A model generated the notes under the pieces. That model was not told where the DNA came from. It did not search any database and saw only the letters and a program-made list of their open reading frames with translations. The translations under genes were made by a program, and so were the position numbers. This document shows, piece by piece, positions 18,746 through 61,572 of a stretch of DNA of 64,000 nt; positions within the stretch are counted from its first letter, which is position 1; every line of letters begins with the position of its first letter. This DNA is from Octopus vulgaris (lineage: Eukaryota), in the NCBI GenBank assembly GCA_951406725.2, contig OX597819.1, positions 60,822,001 through 60,886,000 of the forward strand, in the 5' to 3' direction.

Positions 18746-19099
18746 ATACATATACATGTGCATATATATATATATGTGTATACACACACACACACACACA
18801 CACACAGACATGTATATATAAACACACATACATTTCTAGTGCAATCATAAAATTTTGTGGCTATCAAAGAAAGCTCCTCTACTGGACTCAGCTAGCAGAC
18901 CATATAGTGCAGAGGAATATAATGCACATTTTTATGCAACTGAAAGCCAGGAGGTCTGAGAGGTGAATATATTTATGGCTGTGTTGTAAGAAGCTTGCTT
19001 CCCAACCATATGGTTTCGGGTTCAGTTCCACTGCGTGGCACCTTGAGTGAGTGTCTTCTACTATAGCCTCAGGTCCACCAAAGCTTTTGACCGTCATCG

Positions 19100-19297
19100 C
19101 CATGATCGATCGCTAACCACTAAAGCTTTCTTTATTCTCTCTCTGTTTATTTTCTCGTGTTCCTTTATGTTGAAGAGCGTAGGCTCGAAACGTAAAATAC
19201 TTTCTCACCTTCCCGAGTGTTAAACTAATACACGTTTGTTGTTTACATACCTGACTTCGTCTTTTGCTTTTTTGTTTGTTTTTTGTAAATTCCAACT
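19100..19297 (+). mobile_element. Penelope-like/retrozyme-like repeat (HHR family 1) with a hammerhead-like motif at 19163-19197
   Basis: Homologous to copies at 38.3, 38.8, 46.9 and 55.3 kb. Motif CTTT-ATGTTGA-A-GAGC-GTAG-GCTC-GAAA-CG-TA-AAAT (C3 mutated here). The 3' end abuts (TA)n. Confidence 0.7.
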
Positions 19298-25039: not shown

Positions 25040-25279
25040 AATTGATAAAAAGTATCGAGTGAAATTGCCGTAAGGCGTGGAAAATCTGACGTTTCGGACA
25101 AAGTACCCTTCTTCAAGGAAAACTTGAAGGGAGAGAAATTAATGAGACATCAGAGTTGTATTTGGATATACAACTTTGCTGTCTCTCATTTATTTCTCTC
25201 CTTTCAAATTTTCCCTGGAGAAGGGCACCTTATCCGAAACGTTAGATTTTCCCCGTTCACTCTACGTTTTTTATCGATT
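25040..25279. repeat. About 240-bp fold-back palindrome with a hammerhead-like motif in each arm (Penelope-like inverted terminus)
   Basis: Arms GGAAAATCTGACGTTTCGGA...GAGAC / GTCTC...TCCGAAACGTTAGATTTTCC around the centre GTTGTATTTGGATATACAAC. Confidence 0.75.
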
Positions 25280-25915
25280 TTTCTAAGCAAGTCTTGCCGA
25301 CGCAGCCCAACATCAGCCTCTATGGGCAAATGTCATTTTCTCTAGTCTCAGGTTGACCCAAACTCTGTGATGAAACAGTGTCGGCAGAAACTATGTAGAA
25401 TCCCGTCGAATGGACTATGCTTGCAATTCAAGAGGTACAACTTTATTGCACACCATATCTCTAATGGTACACGTGACTGTAAGATGCTCTGTCGCTTACA
25501 GCGCTTAACACAGGAGCAGGTAACTCCGTTGATAGAACAACTGAATTCTCGCAATGTCGAACGACGGATATCCTATGCCCTACACATGTATGTATTCGTG
25601 TATGTGTATGTTTGAGTATACAAATAAGAGGAAAATACGCTATACAGAAGTAGTATGTAATTATTAATTGTTGAGGTAAATATTCTCTGTTGTTGATCTT
25701 GCTACATGATCAGCAAGACAGTCAAGCTTATGTCTGGCTCAGATATCGGATTTAAAACAACTCCTTAAACACCAAACATATACACAAATAAACACAATGA
25801 CACATGTGTGTATGACGAGCTTCTGTACACTTTTCGCCTACGTATGTATAAGTGTGTGTGTGTGTATGTATGTGTTAATATAAATACTAGTCAACCTATA
25901 TCTATGCACCAGCCG

Positions 25916-37687: not shown

Positions 37688-37868
37688 CACATACACACAC
37701 ACACAAATATACGACGGGATTCTTTCAGTTTCCATCTACCAAATCCATTCACAAGGCTTTGGTCGGCCTATAGCAGAAGACACTTGCCCAAGGTGCCACG
37801 CAGTGGGACTGAACCCGGAACCATGTGGTTGGTAAGCAAGCTATTTACCACACAGCCACTCCTACGCC
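37478..37868 (-). mobile_element. SINE-B full length
   Basis: Complete reverse-complement copy, in inverted orientation to 36860-37240. Confidence 0.9.
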
Positions 37869-38274
37869 TATCTGTCTGTCTATTAATTTATCTATCTATT
37901 AATAATATGTTCTAATAATAGTATTCTAGGTCATAATGTTGTATAGCCCCATGTCAGGTTAAGTGCTATTAAACAAATCCACGTTAGAAGGTATTCCAGT
38001 CATGGCCATCTCTCCAACTTATGTTTCTATAGGACATTATTCAATGTGTACTTGTCGCATCTAGGACAGTAAACTGTGTGTGTGTGTGTGTGTATCTTTC
38101 CCTCTAAGTTTGTCCATTATCACGTGACAACCGGTGCCAGCTTGTTTATGATATCGTAACTTAGGGGTGAGGCAAAAGTGTACGAGACAGTAAGTATATA
38201 TATCAGGTCATTATGAACCCAGAACCATGTGGTTGGGAAGCAAGCTTCTTACCACACAGTCACGCCTATACATG

Positions 38275-38323
<49 letters not shown>

Positions 38324-38420
38324 CGGGAAGCTTTATGAAAATAAACAAAAGACGAAGGCAGGTGGAAAACAAACGAACAATTGTATTAGTATGACGCTCA
38401 GGAAATATAAATAAAACAAG

Positions 38421-38458
38421 TCTTTAACGTTTCGAGCCTACGCTCTTCAACAGAAAGA
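38421..38458 (-). ncRNA. Minimal type I hammerhead-like motif, variant core CUGUUGA
   Basis: rc = UCUUU-CUGUUGA-A-GAGC(GUAG)GCUC-GAAA-CG-UU-AAAGA; perfect 5-bp stem I, 4-bp stem II, palindromic AACGUU loop 3. Confidence 0.7.
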
Positions 38459-38848
38459 TACACAGAGAGAGAAAAACACAGAAAGAAGGAGAGAAAAAAT
38501 GCGTGCAGTAGCTAACGAATCAACATGGCGATCTGATTTCGGTCAGAGGTCAAAGATCAAACATGAGACGCGAGAGCGAAATAAGGGGAGATAATAGGGT
38601 TGATAAAAGGGTTGAGGGACCAGCTAATAGTGCGTAGGAGGGGTCTGGATGTGTGTATGTATAGGGTTGGTGTATGTATTAGTATGTATAAGGGTGTGTG
38701 TGTGTGTGTGTGTATGAGAGAGTATTAGTGCGTAGGATTGGTCTGGACGTGCGTATGTAGGCAGAGTTTACGAAAAAAAACAAAAGACGAAGACAGGTGG
38801 TGTACAAAACAAACAAATGTATTAGTATAACGCTCAGGAATAGAAAGT

Positions 38849-38884
38849 CTTTTACATTTCGAGCCTACGGTCTTCTACAGAAAG
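38849..38884 (-). ncRNA. Hammerhead-like motif (family 1, core CUGUAGA)
   Basis: rc = CUUU-CUGUAGA-A-GACC(GUAG)GCUC-GAAA-UG-UA-AAAG; second tandem copy. Confidence 0.6.
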
Positions 38885-39263
38885 GGACACAGAAAAAACA
38901 AGGAGAGAAACCAGGAGAGAAAAAAATGTGTAGTGGCTACACGATGTAAATATACATGTATGTATATATACAATGTAAATATACATGTATATATATATGT
39001 AAATATACGTGTATATATATATGTACGTATGCATATATATATAATATGTATGCAGGCATATACATGTATATATATATACATGTGTGTAGATATATATATA
39101 TACACACACACATATACAAAGGCGTGACAGTGGTAAGAAGCTTGCTTCCCAACCAATGGATCGGGGTTCATAATGACCTGATATATATACTTATGTGTAT
39201 ATATTTGTATGTATGTATATATAAATACATGCATATATACACACACACATATATATATACAAA

Positions 39264-39480
39264 AGGCGGCGAGCTGACAGACTCGTTAGCACGCCGGGCG
39301 AAATGCGTAGCCGTATTTCGTCTGCCGTTACGTTCTGAGTTCAAATTCCACCGAGGTCGACTTTGCCTTTCATCCTTTCGGGGTCGAAAAATTAAGTACC
39401 AGTTACGCCCTGGGGTCGATGTAATCGACATAATCCGTTTGTCCCCTCTGTGTTTAGCCCCTTGTGGGCAGTAGTGAAAT
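39264..39480 (+). mobile_element. Young-tail SINE-A
   Basis: Full head, central domain and tail, inserted in an (AC/AT) microsatellite. Confidence 0.88.
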
Positions 39481-39988: not shown

Positions 39989-40069
39989 GTATTTACAAGT
40001 ATGAATACATACACACATGTGTGTATATATACGTGTATATATCTGTGTGTGTTCGTACCAAAAGCAGAT

Positions 40070-40475
40070 ACATATGTGCATATATATATATGCTATACAT
40101 GTATATATGTGCATATATATATGCTATACATGTATATGTGCATATATATATGCTATACATGTATATATGTGCATATATATATGCTATACGTGTATATATG
40201 TGCATATATATATGCTATACGTGTATATATGTGCATATATATATGCTATACGTGTATATGTGCATATATATATGCTATACGTGTATATGTGCATATATAT
40301 ATGCTATACGTGTATATGTGCATATATATATGCTATACGTGTATATGTGCATATATATATGCTATACGTGTATATGTGCATATATATATGCTATACGTGT
40401 ATATGTGCATATATATATGCTATACGTGTATATGTGCATATATATGCTATACATGTATATATGTGCATATATATA
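40070..40475. repeat. Minisatellite, ~29-31-bp unit GTATATGTGCATATATATATGCTATACGT
   Basis: More than 12 tandem units. Confidence 0.9.
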
Positions 40476-41918
40476 TGTATATTTTTTTTTTAGTTTAAGC
40501 TCAGAGCTGCGGCCATGCTGATGCACCGCCGTTTTGCTACACTGTTATTACTAAGAGCCTCCTCTAATATGTGACACGTGTCCGTTTGATTGGAAAATTT
40601 CTATAAGTGGCTGAAGATTGCTCAACATTTTAAAACTGATGTAATACTTAGTGTTTTATAAAATGAAGTAGCATGAAACGATTGTACCACATTACTTCGG
40701 ATATACTTGCTACTTATTTTGATTATATTATTTTGATTATATTATTATTTTGATTATGTGTGTGTGTGCATATATATACTAAACATGTTTATATATATGC
40801 ATATATGCTACATATATGTATATATATATATATGCAATATATATATGCATGTGTATATACATATACTATATATGTATATATATATGTGCATGTGTGTATA
40901 TACTATATATGTATATATATATGTGCATGTGTGTATATACTATATATGTATATATATATGTGCATGTGTGTATATACTATATATGTATATATATATGTGC
41001 ATGTGTGTATATGCTATATATGTATATATATATGTGTATATGCTATATATGTATATATATATATATGTGTATGTGTATATGCTATATATGTATATATATA
41101 TATATGTGTATGTGTATATATACTATATATATATATATATATGTGTATGTATACTATATATATATATATATATATATGTGTATGTGTATATATATTATAT
41201 ATATATATATGTATGTGTATATATATTATATATATATATGTATGTGTATATATATTATATATATATATATGTGTATGTGTATATATACTACATATATATA
41301 TATATATGTGCTTGTGTATATATATACTATATATGTATATATATACTATATATGTATATATATATATGTGCTTGTGTATATATATACTATATATGTATAT
41401 GCATATATGTGCATGTGTGTATATATATATGCTTGTGTATATATATATATATATATATATTCTATATATATATATTTTCACGTATATGTTCATATACATG
41501 TATATGTAGATATAGTTCCAAGGCAGCTTTATCTCTAAAGTCATCTTCATGATCGATTAAGTAATGCAATATGAAACCCCTGGTTATAGGTGCATGATTA
41601 CCCTAATGCTGAGATAAATTGCTTTGATATAAACATTTTAATTCACGTGGCAGACGATGTTTTGAGTATAAAATAATATAAAAACCACCATAGTAGTACC
41701 GCCGACTGATAGGTTCCTTGATTAATTGTTTGAAAGGTTTCTCATTATTTCAAATTTAACTTTTTATTTATTTATTTATTTATTTATTTTCATTTGAATT
41801 TGTTTTCCTAGAGAGGAGGGTTCTTAGATAGATATATAAAATATGCTTGGCGACCTGACTGAAAGCCTGCCAGTCTGTCTCTCTGTCTGTTGGTCGATCG
41901 GTCTCTGTCTATGTATCT

Positions 41919-42136: not shown

Positions 42137-42255
42137 GCTTACGGCCATATCACGTTGAAAGCACCGGTTCTCGTCCGCTCACCGAAGTTAAGCAACATCG
42201 AGCCTAGTTAGTACTTAGATGGGTGACCGCTTGGGAAACCTAGGTGCTGTAAGCA
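42137..42255 (+). rRNA. 5S rRNA: 5S rRNA sequence (full length; probably a retrocopy or SINE head rather than a functional gene)
   Basis: GCTTACGGCCATATCACGTTGAAAGCACCGGTTCTCGTCCG...AGTTAAGCAAC...GATGGGTGACCGCTTGGGAAACCTAGGTGCTGTAAGCA. Terminal helix GCTTAC/GTAAGC and boxes A and C are present. There is no T4+ terminator, the copy is isolated, and a few conserved positions are substituted. Confidence 0.93.
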
Positions 42256-43628: not shown

Positions 43629-44334
43629 TTCAGTGTGTGTGTTAACGATTCTGTCAGCTCGCCGCCTTAACAAGCAAAGGAATATTCTAGCAGCATTTCG
43701 TCTGTTTTAACGTGCTGAGTTCAAATTCCTCCGGGGTTGACTTTGCCTTTCATCCTTTCGTGATCGATAAAATAAGTACAAGTTATGCATTGGGGTCGAT
43801 GTAATTGAATTACTCCCCACCACAAAAAAAAAAAAAATTGCTGACTTTGTGCCAAAAATTGAAACTATTATTGTAGATGTTGTTGAAAGCGTTGATGAAT
43901 TCATGATGTATTTAGCAAGCCGGGAAGAGTAATGAAAAAAAACAGAAAGTAAATAAAGTAATTTAGTTCGAAATAAACGATTATTATAGTGGAGGAGCAA
44001 AAAAATATGGCGGCTTTTTATAAATTTCAACCAGTTGCCTTCTCTAGTTGATTAAATCTCGAGGTGGAGCCTCTTTATTTGATGGGAACCAATTCCTTTT
44101 TTTGTCATTGAAAGATTCTTCCGAATGTAGATGTACAATACTATCACGATAAAACATACATACATAGCGTATACATGCATAACATATACATACATTCATA
44201 GCCACACATACACACACAATCTTTCCCTTCCTTTTAAGCGTTAAACTAATACATTTTTTAAAACTTGTATCCTCGTGCTGTTTGATTTTTTTTGCTCATT
44301 ACCTAATATATGTATTTATGTATGTATTTATTTC

Positions 44335-46845: not shown

Positions 46846-46849
<4 letters not shown>

Positions 46850-47110
46850 AGATTTCACAAAAAAAATAAACAAAAGACGAAGACAGGTGGTGTAGACAAC
46901 AAACATGTATTAGTATAACGTTCGAGAAGTGAAAACGTCTTTTACGTTTCGAGCCTATGCTCTTCCACAGAAAGGAACACAGAAAGAAACAAGGAGAGAA
47001 AATAAAGAATGTGTAGTGGCTAGCTTTCTGTCATGGCAAATGCCGGACAGAAGGGTCACACAGGGGAGCTAGGGAGAAGGGGAGTTAATAAAGTGGTGGT
47101 GTAGGGAGTA
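46846..47110 (-). mobile_element. HHR family 1 repeat; motif at 46939-46974 (core CUGUGGA)
   Basis: rc CUUU-CUGUGGA-A-GAGC(AUAG)GCUC-GAAA-CG-UA-AAAG; abuts (TA)n. Confidence 0.7.
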
Positions 47111-55206: not shown

Positions 55207-55210
<4 letters not shown>

Positions 55211-55365
55211 TGGAATTTACAGAAACACAAAATAAAAGATGAAGACGGGTGTGTAAACAACTAATAGATGTATTAGTTTAACGCTCGGGAAGTGAGAAAG
55301 TCTTTTACGTTTCGAGGCTACTCTCTTCGACAGAAAGGAATACAGAAATAAGCAGAAAGAGAAAA
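55207..55365 (-). mobile_element. HHR family 1 repeat; motif at 55302-55337 (core CUGUCGA)
   Basis: rc CUUU-CUGUCGA-A-GAGA(GUAG)CCUC-GAAA-CG-UA-AAAG; abuts (TA)n. Confidence 0.68.
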
Positions 55366-55388
55366 TATATACAAGAAGCATACATATA

Positions 55389-60059: not shown

Positions 60060-61572
60060 CAAATCGCTTCATCCAACATTCCAAAAGTAGCGAAAGGTCC
60101 CGCCTAAAATCAACATTGATGGAAATTGAAAAAATCCTGCAACAATCCTATGTGAGGGAAAGAGCACACAAGGAAGCCTGGGTTATAAAATACATTATGC
60201 CAAACCCAAAGTAAAAAACATTATGTCAAACCCAAAGGCCTATTATTTTGCGAAGGAAACAGCATCTGTATGCTGCAAGATAGAACCCCTCTTCCAAAAG
60301 GATGGCTCCCTCACAGATAGTCCAACTAGGATCAGCGAGGTACTGAATGACCAGTTCAAACGTGTCGTTACCACTCCGTTGGAACACAGAGAAGTGAACG
60401 AACCAGTGGATTTCTTTGCCTCCTCTCCTATAACCAGTGAGGCAATTACGATGGAATACATTGACATTAGCGAAGAAGATATACTACAAGTCATAGGTGA
60501 GGTGGACGCAAACTCAATTGCTGGTCCTGATGGTTTTCCAGAAATCCTCCTCAAATCGTGTGAGCGTGCCCTGGCAAAATTTCTAAAGATTCTCTTCCAG
60601 AGCTTTCTCGCAAATGGCAGGCTGCCAAGCAAGCTGGAGGGAATTATATGCCCAATCCATAAAGGGGGAAGCAGAGCAGATGCCAATAACTATAGACCTA
60701 TGTATCTGACTTCACACATCAGCAAAGTCATGGAACGGATAGTTAGAGGGAAACTAATCACATTCCTTGAAGAAAATAACTTGCTGAGTGATACCCGGCA
60801 TGGCTTTCGACGAGCTCTTACAACACTATGACTGGGTGTTGAAGCAGTTACTCAACAACTCAAATGTGGACGTAATATACCTTGATTTTGCAAAATCATT
60901 TGATAAAGTGGATCAAGGTATGATATGCCATAAACTGTGTGATCTCGGCATAGTTGGAAAACTTGAAGAGTGATTACATGACTTTCTGAAACATATGGTA
61001 TATTTTCTTCAAGGAATGTGATTAGTTTTCCTCTAACTATCCGTTAGAGCCACCTCAATGAAAACACAAATAGTGAGTAGTGTTCCACAGGGCACTGTCT
61101 TGGGATCACTGCTTTTCATAGTGGCTCTCTCAGATATGCCCTCAACTACCCGGATAGCCACCCTTACTAGCTACGCAGACGATACGAAAGTCTCGCAGAA
61201 AATGCAGAACCCCAGCGATGTTGCACACCTGCAGCAGGATTTGGACTCAATTTATAAATGGACTGAGAATAATAATATGCAGTTTAATGCTGAAAAAATC
61301 CTAGCCCTGCGCTACCAGCGCCCAAAACTGATTGTGAAACTTACAGGGTCCACAAGGGATTACAATCCCAGAGCCTAAGTCAGTGGGGGACCTGGGTATC
61401 GACATGAGTGATGATACCTCTTTCCAAGTGCACATTACCGGGATGGCGACAAAGTGCAGACGACTGGTTGGCTGGATCCTGAGATCTTTCAGAACCAGAG
61501 AAAAGGAAACCATTATAGCCCTCTGGAGGACATTCGTCCTCAGCCACCTGGATTACTGCTCCCAGCTATGTG
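60060..61572 (+). pseudogene. CR1/Jockey-group LINE reverse-transcriptase region, frameshifted
   Basis: GPDGF, NYRP..LTS.ISKVMERIV, HGFR, DVIYLDFAKSFDKVD, VPQGTVLGSLLF, YADDTK, LQQDLD.I.KW...N.MQFN..K, DLG and LDYCSQL across ORFs 60223-60831, 60788-60973, 61058-61378 and 61383 onward. Confidence 0.93.

Follow-up and report, generated by a model that had tools for sequence, protein, structure and literature searches.

Two homologous units that lie in the same orientation between positions 38323 and 38945 of the window (the whole stretch of Octopus vulgaris DNA that was analysed, 64 kb) are best explained as adjacent, 5'-truncated copies of one dispersed repeat family, made from two templates, whether in separate insertions or through a single template switch, and carrying a hammerhead core with U at position 6 that would cleave poorly. 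We put the probability of this reading at about 0.65. The pair is likely a juxtaposition of Penelope-type copies of the usual kind, and nothing in the tandem arrangement is out of the ordinary; what deserves attention is the odd core. A sequence-only reading of the same DNA had proposed a retrozyme-like tandem and named independent insertion as its own alternative, and of the two it is the alternative that fits better.

Anatomy of the unit pair

BLAST within the window aligned unit 1 (38323 to about 38530) with unit 2 (38760 to about 38945) at 78.3% identity over 189 nt (E 2e-36), and pairwise alignment of the two gave 78.1% over 183 columns in the same orientation, as the sequence-only reading had described. 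Its start for unit 1 (38323) also stands, while unit 2 begins at 38760 and not at 38762. A 49-nt block with the hammerhead motif is repeated at 427-nt spacing, and the predicted cuts, which fall after H17 at 38426/38425 in unit 1 and 38853/38852 in unit 2, lie exactly 427 nt apart, the distance claimed earlier. The features of the pair are as follows.

38280–38322, no strand assigned: (TA)n run adjoining the 3' end of unit 1, the likely insertion target
38323–38425, minus strand: unit 1 tail, 103 nt from the predicted cut to the common 3' end of the family
38421–38458, minus strand: minimal type I hammerhead motif of unit 1
38459–38530, minus strand: U-rich leader upstream of the unit 1 motif, common to family copies
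38531–38759, minus strand: spacer, a repeated sequence that ends at 38759 by truncation and is likely the 5' body of unit 1's element
38625–38759, no strand assigned: internal 98-bp tandem repeat of the spacer (full unit 38625–38722 and 37 nt of the next)
38760–38945, minus strand: unit 2, a 5'-truncated family copy with its 3' end 93 nt beyond the predicted cut
38849–38884, minus strand: hammerhead motif of unit 2, core CUG-U-A-GA-A
38944–39100, no strand assigned: TA-rich degenerate microsatellite on the 5' side of unit 2

Relative to unit 2, the tail of unit 1 carries a 9-nt insertion. The 3' end of unit 2 adjoins TACATAC, not a pure (TA)n run. The spacer contains a 37-nt duplication (38625–38661 and 38723–38759, 86% identical, period 98), which confirms the internal duplication reported before. 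This 98-bp repeat is cut in mid-unit at 38759, exactly where unit 2 begins, and does not resume beyond unit 2; nor does the spacer have a counterpart beside unit 2. The spacer would likely be the repeated 5' body of the element to which unit 1 belongs, broken off within a repeat unit; unit 2 would have joined it at a TA-like spot. A candidate for spacer homology upstream of the family copy at 46.9 kb was rejected, its score of 38 falling below the shuffle maximum of 50; element bodies may differ among subfamilies.

The unit pair is flanked by SINE-like repeats at 37700–37870, 38214–38270 and 39265–39480, and the look of these and of the microsatellites would suggest a cephalopod host. Further along are a tandem array of 29–31-bp AT-rich units (40007–40476) and a full-length 5S rRNA match (42137–42255, 110 bits) with a SINE-like repeat close behind it.

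An abundant family with a common 3' end

A BLAST search of the window with the units detected five family copies, at 19.1, 38.4, 38.8, 46.9 and 55.3 kb, a 23-nt fragment at 44237–44259 being excluded from the count. Besides units 1 and 2, these are:

19098–19293, plus strand: family copy with U6, C3 changed to A
46847–47040, minus strand: family copy whose U6 motif is intact and whose 3' end lies at (TA)n
55209–55375, minus strand: family copy with the U6 motif, 3' end at (TA)n

These three are single, not paired. The 5' ends of the copies are ragged and differ from one another, that of the 19.1-kb copy running into SINE-like sequence. The 3' ends lie 93, 96, 99, 102 and 103 nt beyond the cut site and are adjoined by a (TA)n run in four of the five (chance about 7e-6), unit 2 being the only copy without pure (TA)n at this end. 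Because they extend past the cut, the family copies were not made from RNA cleaved at the hammerhead site.

Contigs and reads from four public runs were placed on 38323–38960 at 80% likeness, giving 5,239 records for run X9, 9,882 for X8 and 16,499 for X5. The raw-read run X23 was set aside for copy number and copy ends (18 of 12.9 million reads, most of them less than 90% alike, none reaching 23% of the way to useful depth). Summed contig depth, which is not a copy number and was used as a relative profile only, is 1e5–2e6 over most of the units, as against 4–47 for the single contigs listed, and the family is a very abundant dispersed repeat. Over the spacer, depth is 2e4–2.7e5 across 38521–38630 in the three contig runs and falls away from the motif (in X8, 1.8e5 at 38521–38542, then 1.2e5, 9.7e4, 7.2e4 and 2.9e4, the last at 38609–38630); it climbs over the first internal repeat and reaches its minimum, 3.8e3 at 38719–38740, just before unit 2. 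At least four contigs (two from X9 and two from X8, among the 21 loose ends listed of about 700) continue the 98-bp repeat at 38759 and do not enter unit 2. The G-rich internal repeat at 38631–38762 shows X9/X8 and X9/X5 depth ratios of about 3–7, as against mostly 0.2–1.0 over the units. Transcription, open chromatin or longer arrays could account for the raised X9 depth; X9 is only guessed to be RNA, and the kind of X8 and X5 is not on record.

Among the 124 complex reading frames of at least 70 aa in the window there was no match to a Penelope reverse transcriptase (RT) or GIY-YIG domain. The only frame above the Pfam cut-off was an RT fragment (61037–61375), seemingly part of a LINE remnant; the broken LINE-like reverse transcriptase there spans 60130–61375 on the plus strand (RVT_1, E 2e-09). 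Exact-pattern scans of metagenome, prokaryote genome and viral contigs gave no matches. Given the common 3' end, 5' truncation, (TA)n context and lack of an ORF, the family is likely a non-coding, non-autonomous retroelement of Penelope-like type, or else the end repeat of such an element, in line with the earlier suggestion of a Penelope-mobilised element. The lack of an autonomous partner among these frames weighs the other way.

The geometry of the copies resembles that reported for PAc, the Poseidon element of Anolis, in which the ribozyme cuts at +26 and reverse transcription starts at +111–118, 85–92 nt further on, using uncut RNA (PMC11167929, Frangieh et al. 2024). PAc likewise cuts AT-rich DNA, and in vitro its catalytic ribozyme mutants still insert; the Octopus copies, too, extend about 90 nt past the hammerhead cut before they end, and lie at AT-rich targets. 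PAc is, however, described as autonomous, with a canonical core and an ORF starting at stem II, whereas the Octopus family reads AAG at the position of the PAc ORF start and has no ORF after it. Naiad elements are described as preferring (TA)n, and the same preference has been suggested for Neptune elements (Craig et al. 2021, PMC8557442); (TA)n insertion is listed there for both octopus Naiad families, and target site duplications (TSDs) are said to be hard to see. Naiads are described in the same source as lacking canonical hammerheads, and none of six family motifs of 10–14 nt occurs in the supplementary text with the consensus sequences of the octopus Naiads, where line breaks could hide a match; this gives no ground for placing the Octopus family in these clades. 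A seventh motif, of 9 nt, has five matches in that text, all inside the coding sequence of other elements.

A hammerhead core with U at position 6

In unit 1, stem I (UCUUU/AAAGA) pairs 38458–38454 with 38425–38421, and the core reads C3 U4 G5 U6 U7 G8 A9 plus an extra A (38453–38446). Stem II (GAGC/GCUC, loop GUAG) occupies 38445–38434 and is followed by GAAA, the palindromic ACGU of helix III and H17=U at 38426; the palindromic helix is a point on which the sequence-only reading is supported. Unit 2 has stem II broken by a C-C mismatch at 38870, C15.2 changed to U at 38856, and A as H17 at 38853. The sequence-only reading called both units hammerhead-bearing, which holds in so far as each has a minus-strand minimal type I motif, but the core is non-canonical (A6U, with the extra A after A9).

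Position 6 is U in all five window copies, the core reading CUG-U-N-GA-A in place of a form with the conserved A6. Position 7 is U, A, G, U and C in the five, and the register of the motif is supported by this variation of position 7 over all four bases while position 6 stays U. In the contigs, A6 at 38877 accounts for 0.12%, 0.22% and 0.08% of depth in X9, X8 and X5, respectively, and none of the 40 difference rows listed (of 47) falls at position 6 of unit 1. A descriptor with U6 had three matches in the window (unit 1 and two of the dispersed copies) and none in 60 shuffles, more than chance would give; unit 2, with its C-C mismatch, and the 19.1-kb copy each fail it by one change. With A6, the same window gave no match. 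Rfam returned no hammerhead at gathering score anywhere in the window, and none among the 52 matches up to E 10 in 38200–39100. A register that would keep A6 (U3 N4 G5 A6 A7 G8 A9) was rejected: the conserved U4 would then be a base that varies freely, the second pair of stem II would be lost and stem I would not pair. Five X23 reads with two starts, less than 90% alike, carry the canonical A6 at 38877 in an otherwise homologous motif; these would come from a more distant copy and give a weak hint that the ancestor was canonical.

Stem I is 4 bp long in four of the five copies, within the 3–7 bp of the minimal hammerheads (min-HHR) of Penelope elements; the G10.1–C11.1 pair that closes stem II is present in all five, and 90% of stem II cells are paired. 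The extra A after A9 and the GAAA are also found in all five copies, and ACGU in four, with AUGU in unit 2. Two-sided (compensatory) changes were seen in none of nine stem pairs, in a set of only five sequences. The 39-nt motif is 88.5% identical among the copies, compared with 78.6% downstream and 66.1% upstream (the pairs are not independent), and this difference argues that the motif may still do something. Folding of a single unit did not give the hammerhead shape, as expected where no helix III forms.

The published consensus of Penelope min-HHRs has a U-rich leader, CUGANGAH, G...C, GAAAN, a palindrome and UH (PMC4209133 supplement), and the Octopus family matches it throughout except at A6 (Cervera and De la Pena 2014, PMC4209133). 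As described there, the shared traits include the type I fold, the U-rich leader, a helix I of 4–5 bp, the G10.1–C11.1 pair, an extra base between A9 and G10.1, a palindromic 15.2–16.2 without loop 3, and a dispersal as mostly single, truncated copies. The Octopus family differs from that set in having U6 throughout, in place of a CUGANGA core or its U3–A8 swap; all 44 min-HHR alignment rows inspected have A6, a circular result as the descriptor (cuganga) required it; and it differs from most in its shorter, 4-bp helix II and in showing no linked RT/EN ORF in the window. A natural change at position 6 has been reported in the phage Bcep176 hammerhead (Perreault et al. 2011, PMC3088659), but that is a single phage sequence with C6 that cleaves slowly (<0.1 per min), whereas the Octopus U6 is nearly fixed in a high-copy repeat. 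A type III hammerhead examined in a saturation study likewise had low activity when its CUGA turn carried a single change (PMC9901934). From these analogues, the U6 core is predicted to cleave poorly.

A core with A6U nearly fixed would, as far as could be checked, be new, no description of it having been found in the literature searched. A survey by Lunse et al. (RNA Biol; cited in PMC6765202) of small hammerhead variants of Penelope-like elements may already list it, and the family may well be catalogued as a repeat. Published descriptors would miss the family because they require A6, and standard descriptors undercount hammerhead motifs such as these.

Cleavage is reported in one study to be dispensable for insertion in vitro (PMC11167929), and a U6 family bears on what role the hammerhead has in Penelope-like elements. 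It is possible, although we think the odds are against it, that the U6 hammerhead is the working form in this abundant family, either still cleaving (as a dimer or with an element protein) or serving as a non-catalytic landmark that sets the start of reverse transcription about 95 nt downstream. If it still cleaves, the known hammerhead core would be widened. Massive amplification despite a predicted near-dead core, together with a motif better conserved than the sequence around it, would favour a structural or protein-assisted role, and a family that CUGANGA searches cannot see would then be a natural test of what the Penelope hammerhead is for.

Two further observations concern hammerheads and their surroundings in the window. 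On the minus strand, a strong polypyrimidine tract lies directly before the unit 1 motif (38459–38500), with ACUAAU and then a U-rich tract after it (38325–38390), and these are possible splice signals; in Drosophila virilis a Penelope intron ends at helix I (PMC4209133). An inverted pair of a different minimal-hammerhead family lies at 25040–25150 and 25185–25290, with arms that align, similar to an inverted pLTR arrangement, and with cores UUGAAGA-A (minus strand) and CUGGAGA-A (plus strand).

Origin of the pair

In the mechanism we favour, a Penelope-type RT/endonuclease supplied in trans would nick TA-rich DNA, cDNA would start on uncut RNA at a point about 95–100 nt beyond the hammerhead cut, and an early stop of reverse transcription would leave the product 5'-truncated. 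Unit 1 and the spacer, about 435 nt together, would be one such product. Unit 2 (about 185 nt, likely from another subfamily) would either have been primed at this product's TA-like end or be a later insertion at the same place. Chance alone would bring a same-orientation pair this close together in 6.8% of windows, given five copies per 64 kb and uniform placement, and across a large genome such pairs would presumably be many; moreover, Penelope-like elements are reported to tend to insert beside each other (PMC6765202). The candidate TSD, ATGTA (38755–38759 and 38944–38948), is worthless alone because the pentamer is locally too common, with 11 occurrences in 357 nt of flank.

The main competing account, which we judge unlikely, is a single old insertion of a partial tandem (pLTR), unit 2 being the truncated upstream copy of unit 1's own template, since diverged. 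Partial tandems are described as typical of Penelope-like elements (PMC8557442, PMC6765202), and the absence of pure (TA)n at the 3' end of unit 2 is what a pLTR junction would show. The relationships within the window can be read in its favour, as the nearest window copy to unit 1 is unit 2 (78.1%, against 68–74% for the others) and the two share an 8–9-nt insertion in the leader; these units agree at three of eight informative sites, and the tree of copies is unresolved. Unit 2, however, has higher identity to the three dispersed copies (83.9, 79.5 and 78.9%) than to unit 1, and the junction interrupts the 98-bp repeat of the body in mid-unit, a repeat that the contigs described above continue. 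The contig letters also weigh against decay of a single template: at 28 of the 33 substitutions between the units, the rows listed (40 of 47) do not show the unit's own letter outvoted in two or more of the contig runs, while at five they do, a count that is biased as contigs go where they fit best, and the 9-nt insertion of unit 1 lies under a depth of more than 1e5. With so few near-fixed private changes per unit, two subfamilies fit better than 22% decay, and the letters and insertion at high depth fit an origin of the units from two subfamilies.

We consider it very improbable that the whole composite of unit 2, spacer and unit 1 is a chimeric element amplified as such. Every scored bin has high summed depth in the three runs, the lowest being the minimum at 38719–38740 given above, which speaks in its favour. 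Depth at 38719–38762 is nevertheless several-fold to more than 100-fold below that of the main bins of unit 2, the low bins could be filled by the internal repeat, and none of the 24 pieces listed (of about 31,900) bridges 38759/38760 with 31 letters on each side; the other three window copies, moreover, stand alone.

Slightly less probable still is an active non-LTR retrozyme, in which the hammerheads would fold as a dimer and cut out a 427-nt RNA that circularises, as the sequence-only reading had it. That proposal did not hold up: since the spacer has no counterpart beside unit 2, there are no like monomers, and only about 185 of 435 nt are repeated, at 78%. Like metazoan non-LTR retrozymes (Cervera and De la Pena 2020, PMC7229834), the DNA is non-coding, hammerhead-bearing and likely Penelope-derived, and its 427 nt and 42% GC are within the published range (150–450 bp, <45% GC); published retrozymes are, however, described as like repeats with canonical type I motifs and high self-pairing, whereas here both cores have A6U, unit 2 is damaged and the putative monomer is not self-paired. 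Its circular fold reaches -44.1 kcal/mol with 37% of bases paired, which 65 of 100 shuffles equal, and its linear fold has a z of +0.62. Crossed dimer helices can be drawn (helix III of 4 bp including one G-U, stems I of 4 and 5 bp), but the RNA pays about 23.5 kcal/mol relative to its free fold when held in the dimer form, and the C-C mismatch in the 4-bp stem II of unit 2 is absent from 99% of contig depth.

In a dimeric hammerhead each core cuts its partner's site. The 427-nt product would for this reason need the damaged core of unit 2, or another copy in trans. In animal retrozymes, cleavage is reported for only one of nine predicted dimers tested (bioRxiv 10.64898/2026.07.22.740005). Among the 15 joints listed of 56, ten go back by 398–435 nt between homologous places, none of them a clean 427, and nine of the ten also occur in X8 or X5, a pattern expected of chimeras between homologous copies; family copies matching unit 1 on one side and unit 2 on the other would give such joints. 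A separate joint, listed as 38361–38766 and seen in X9 (four contigs, depth 2505) and X8 (one contig), connects 38361 of unit 1 to a place matching 38331, and can be read as about 30 nt duplicated in tandem at the family 3' end, reminiscent of the Penelope 'tail'.
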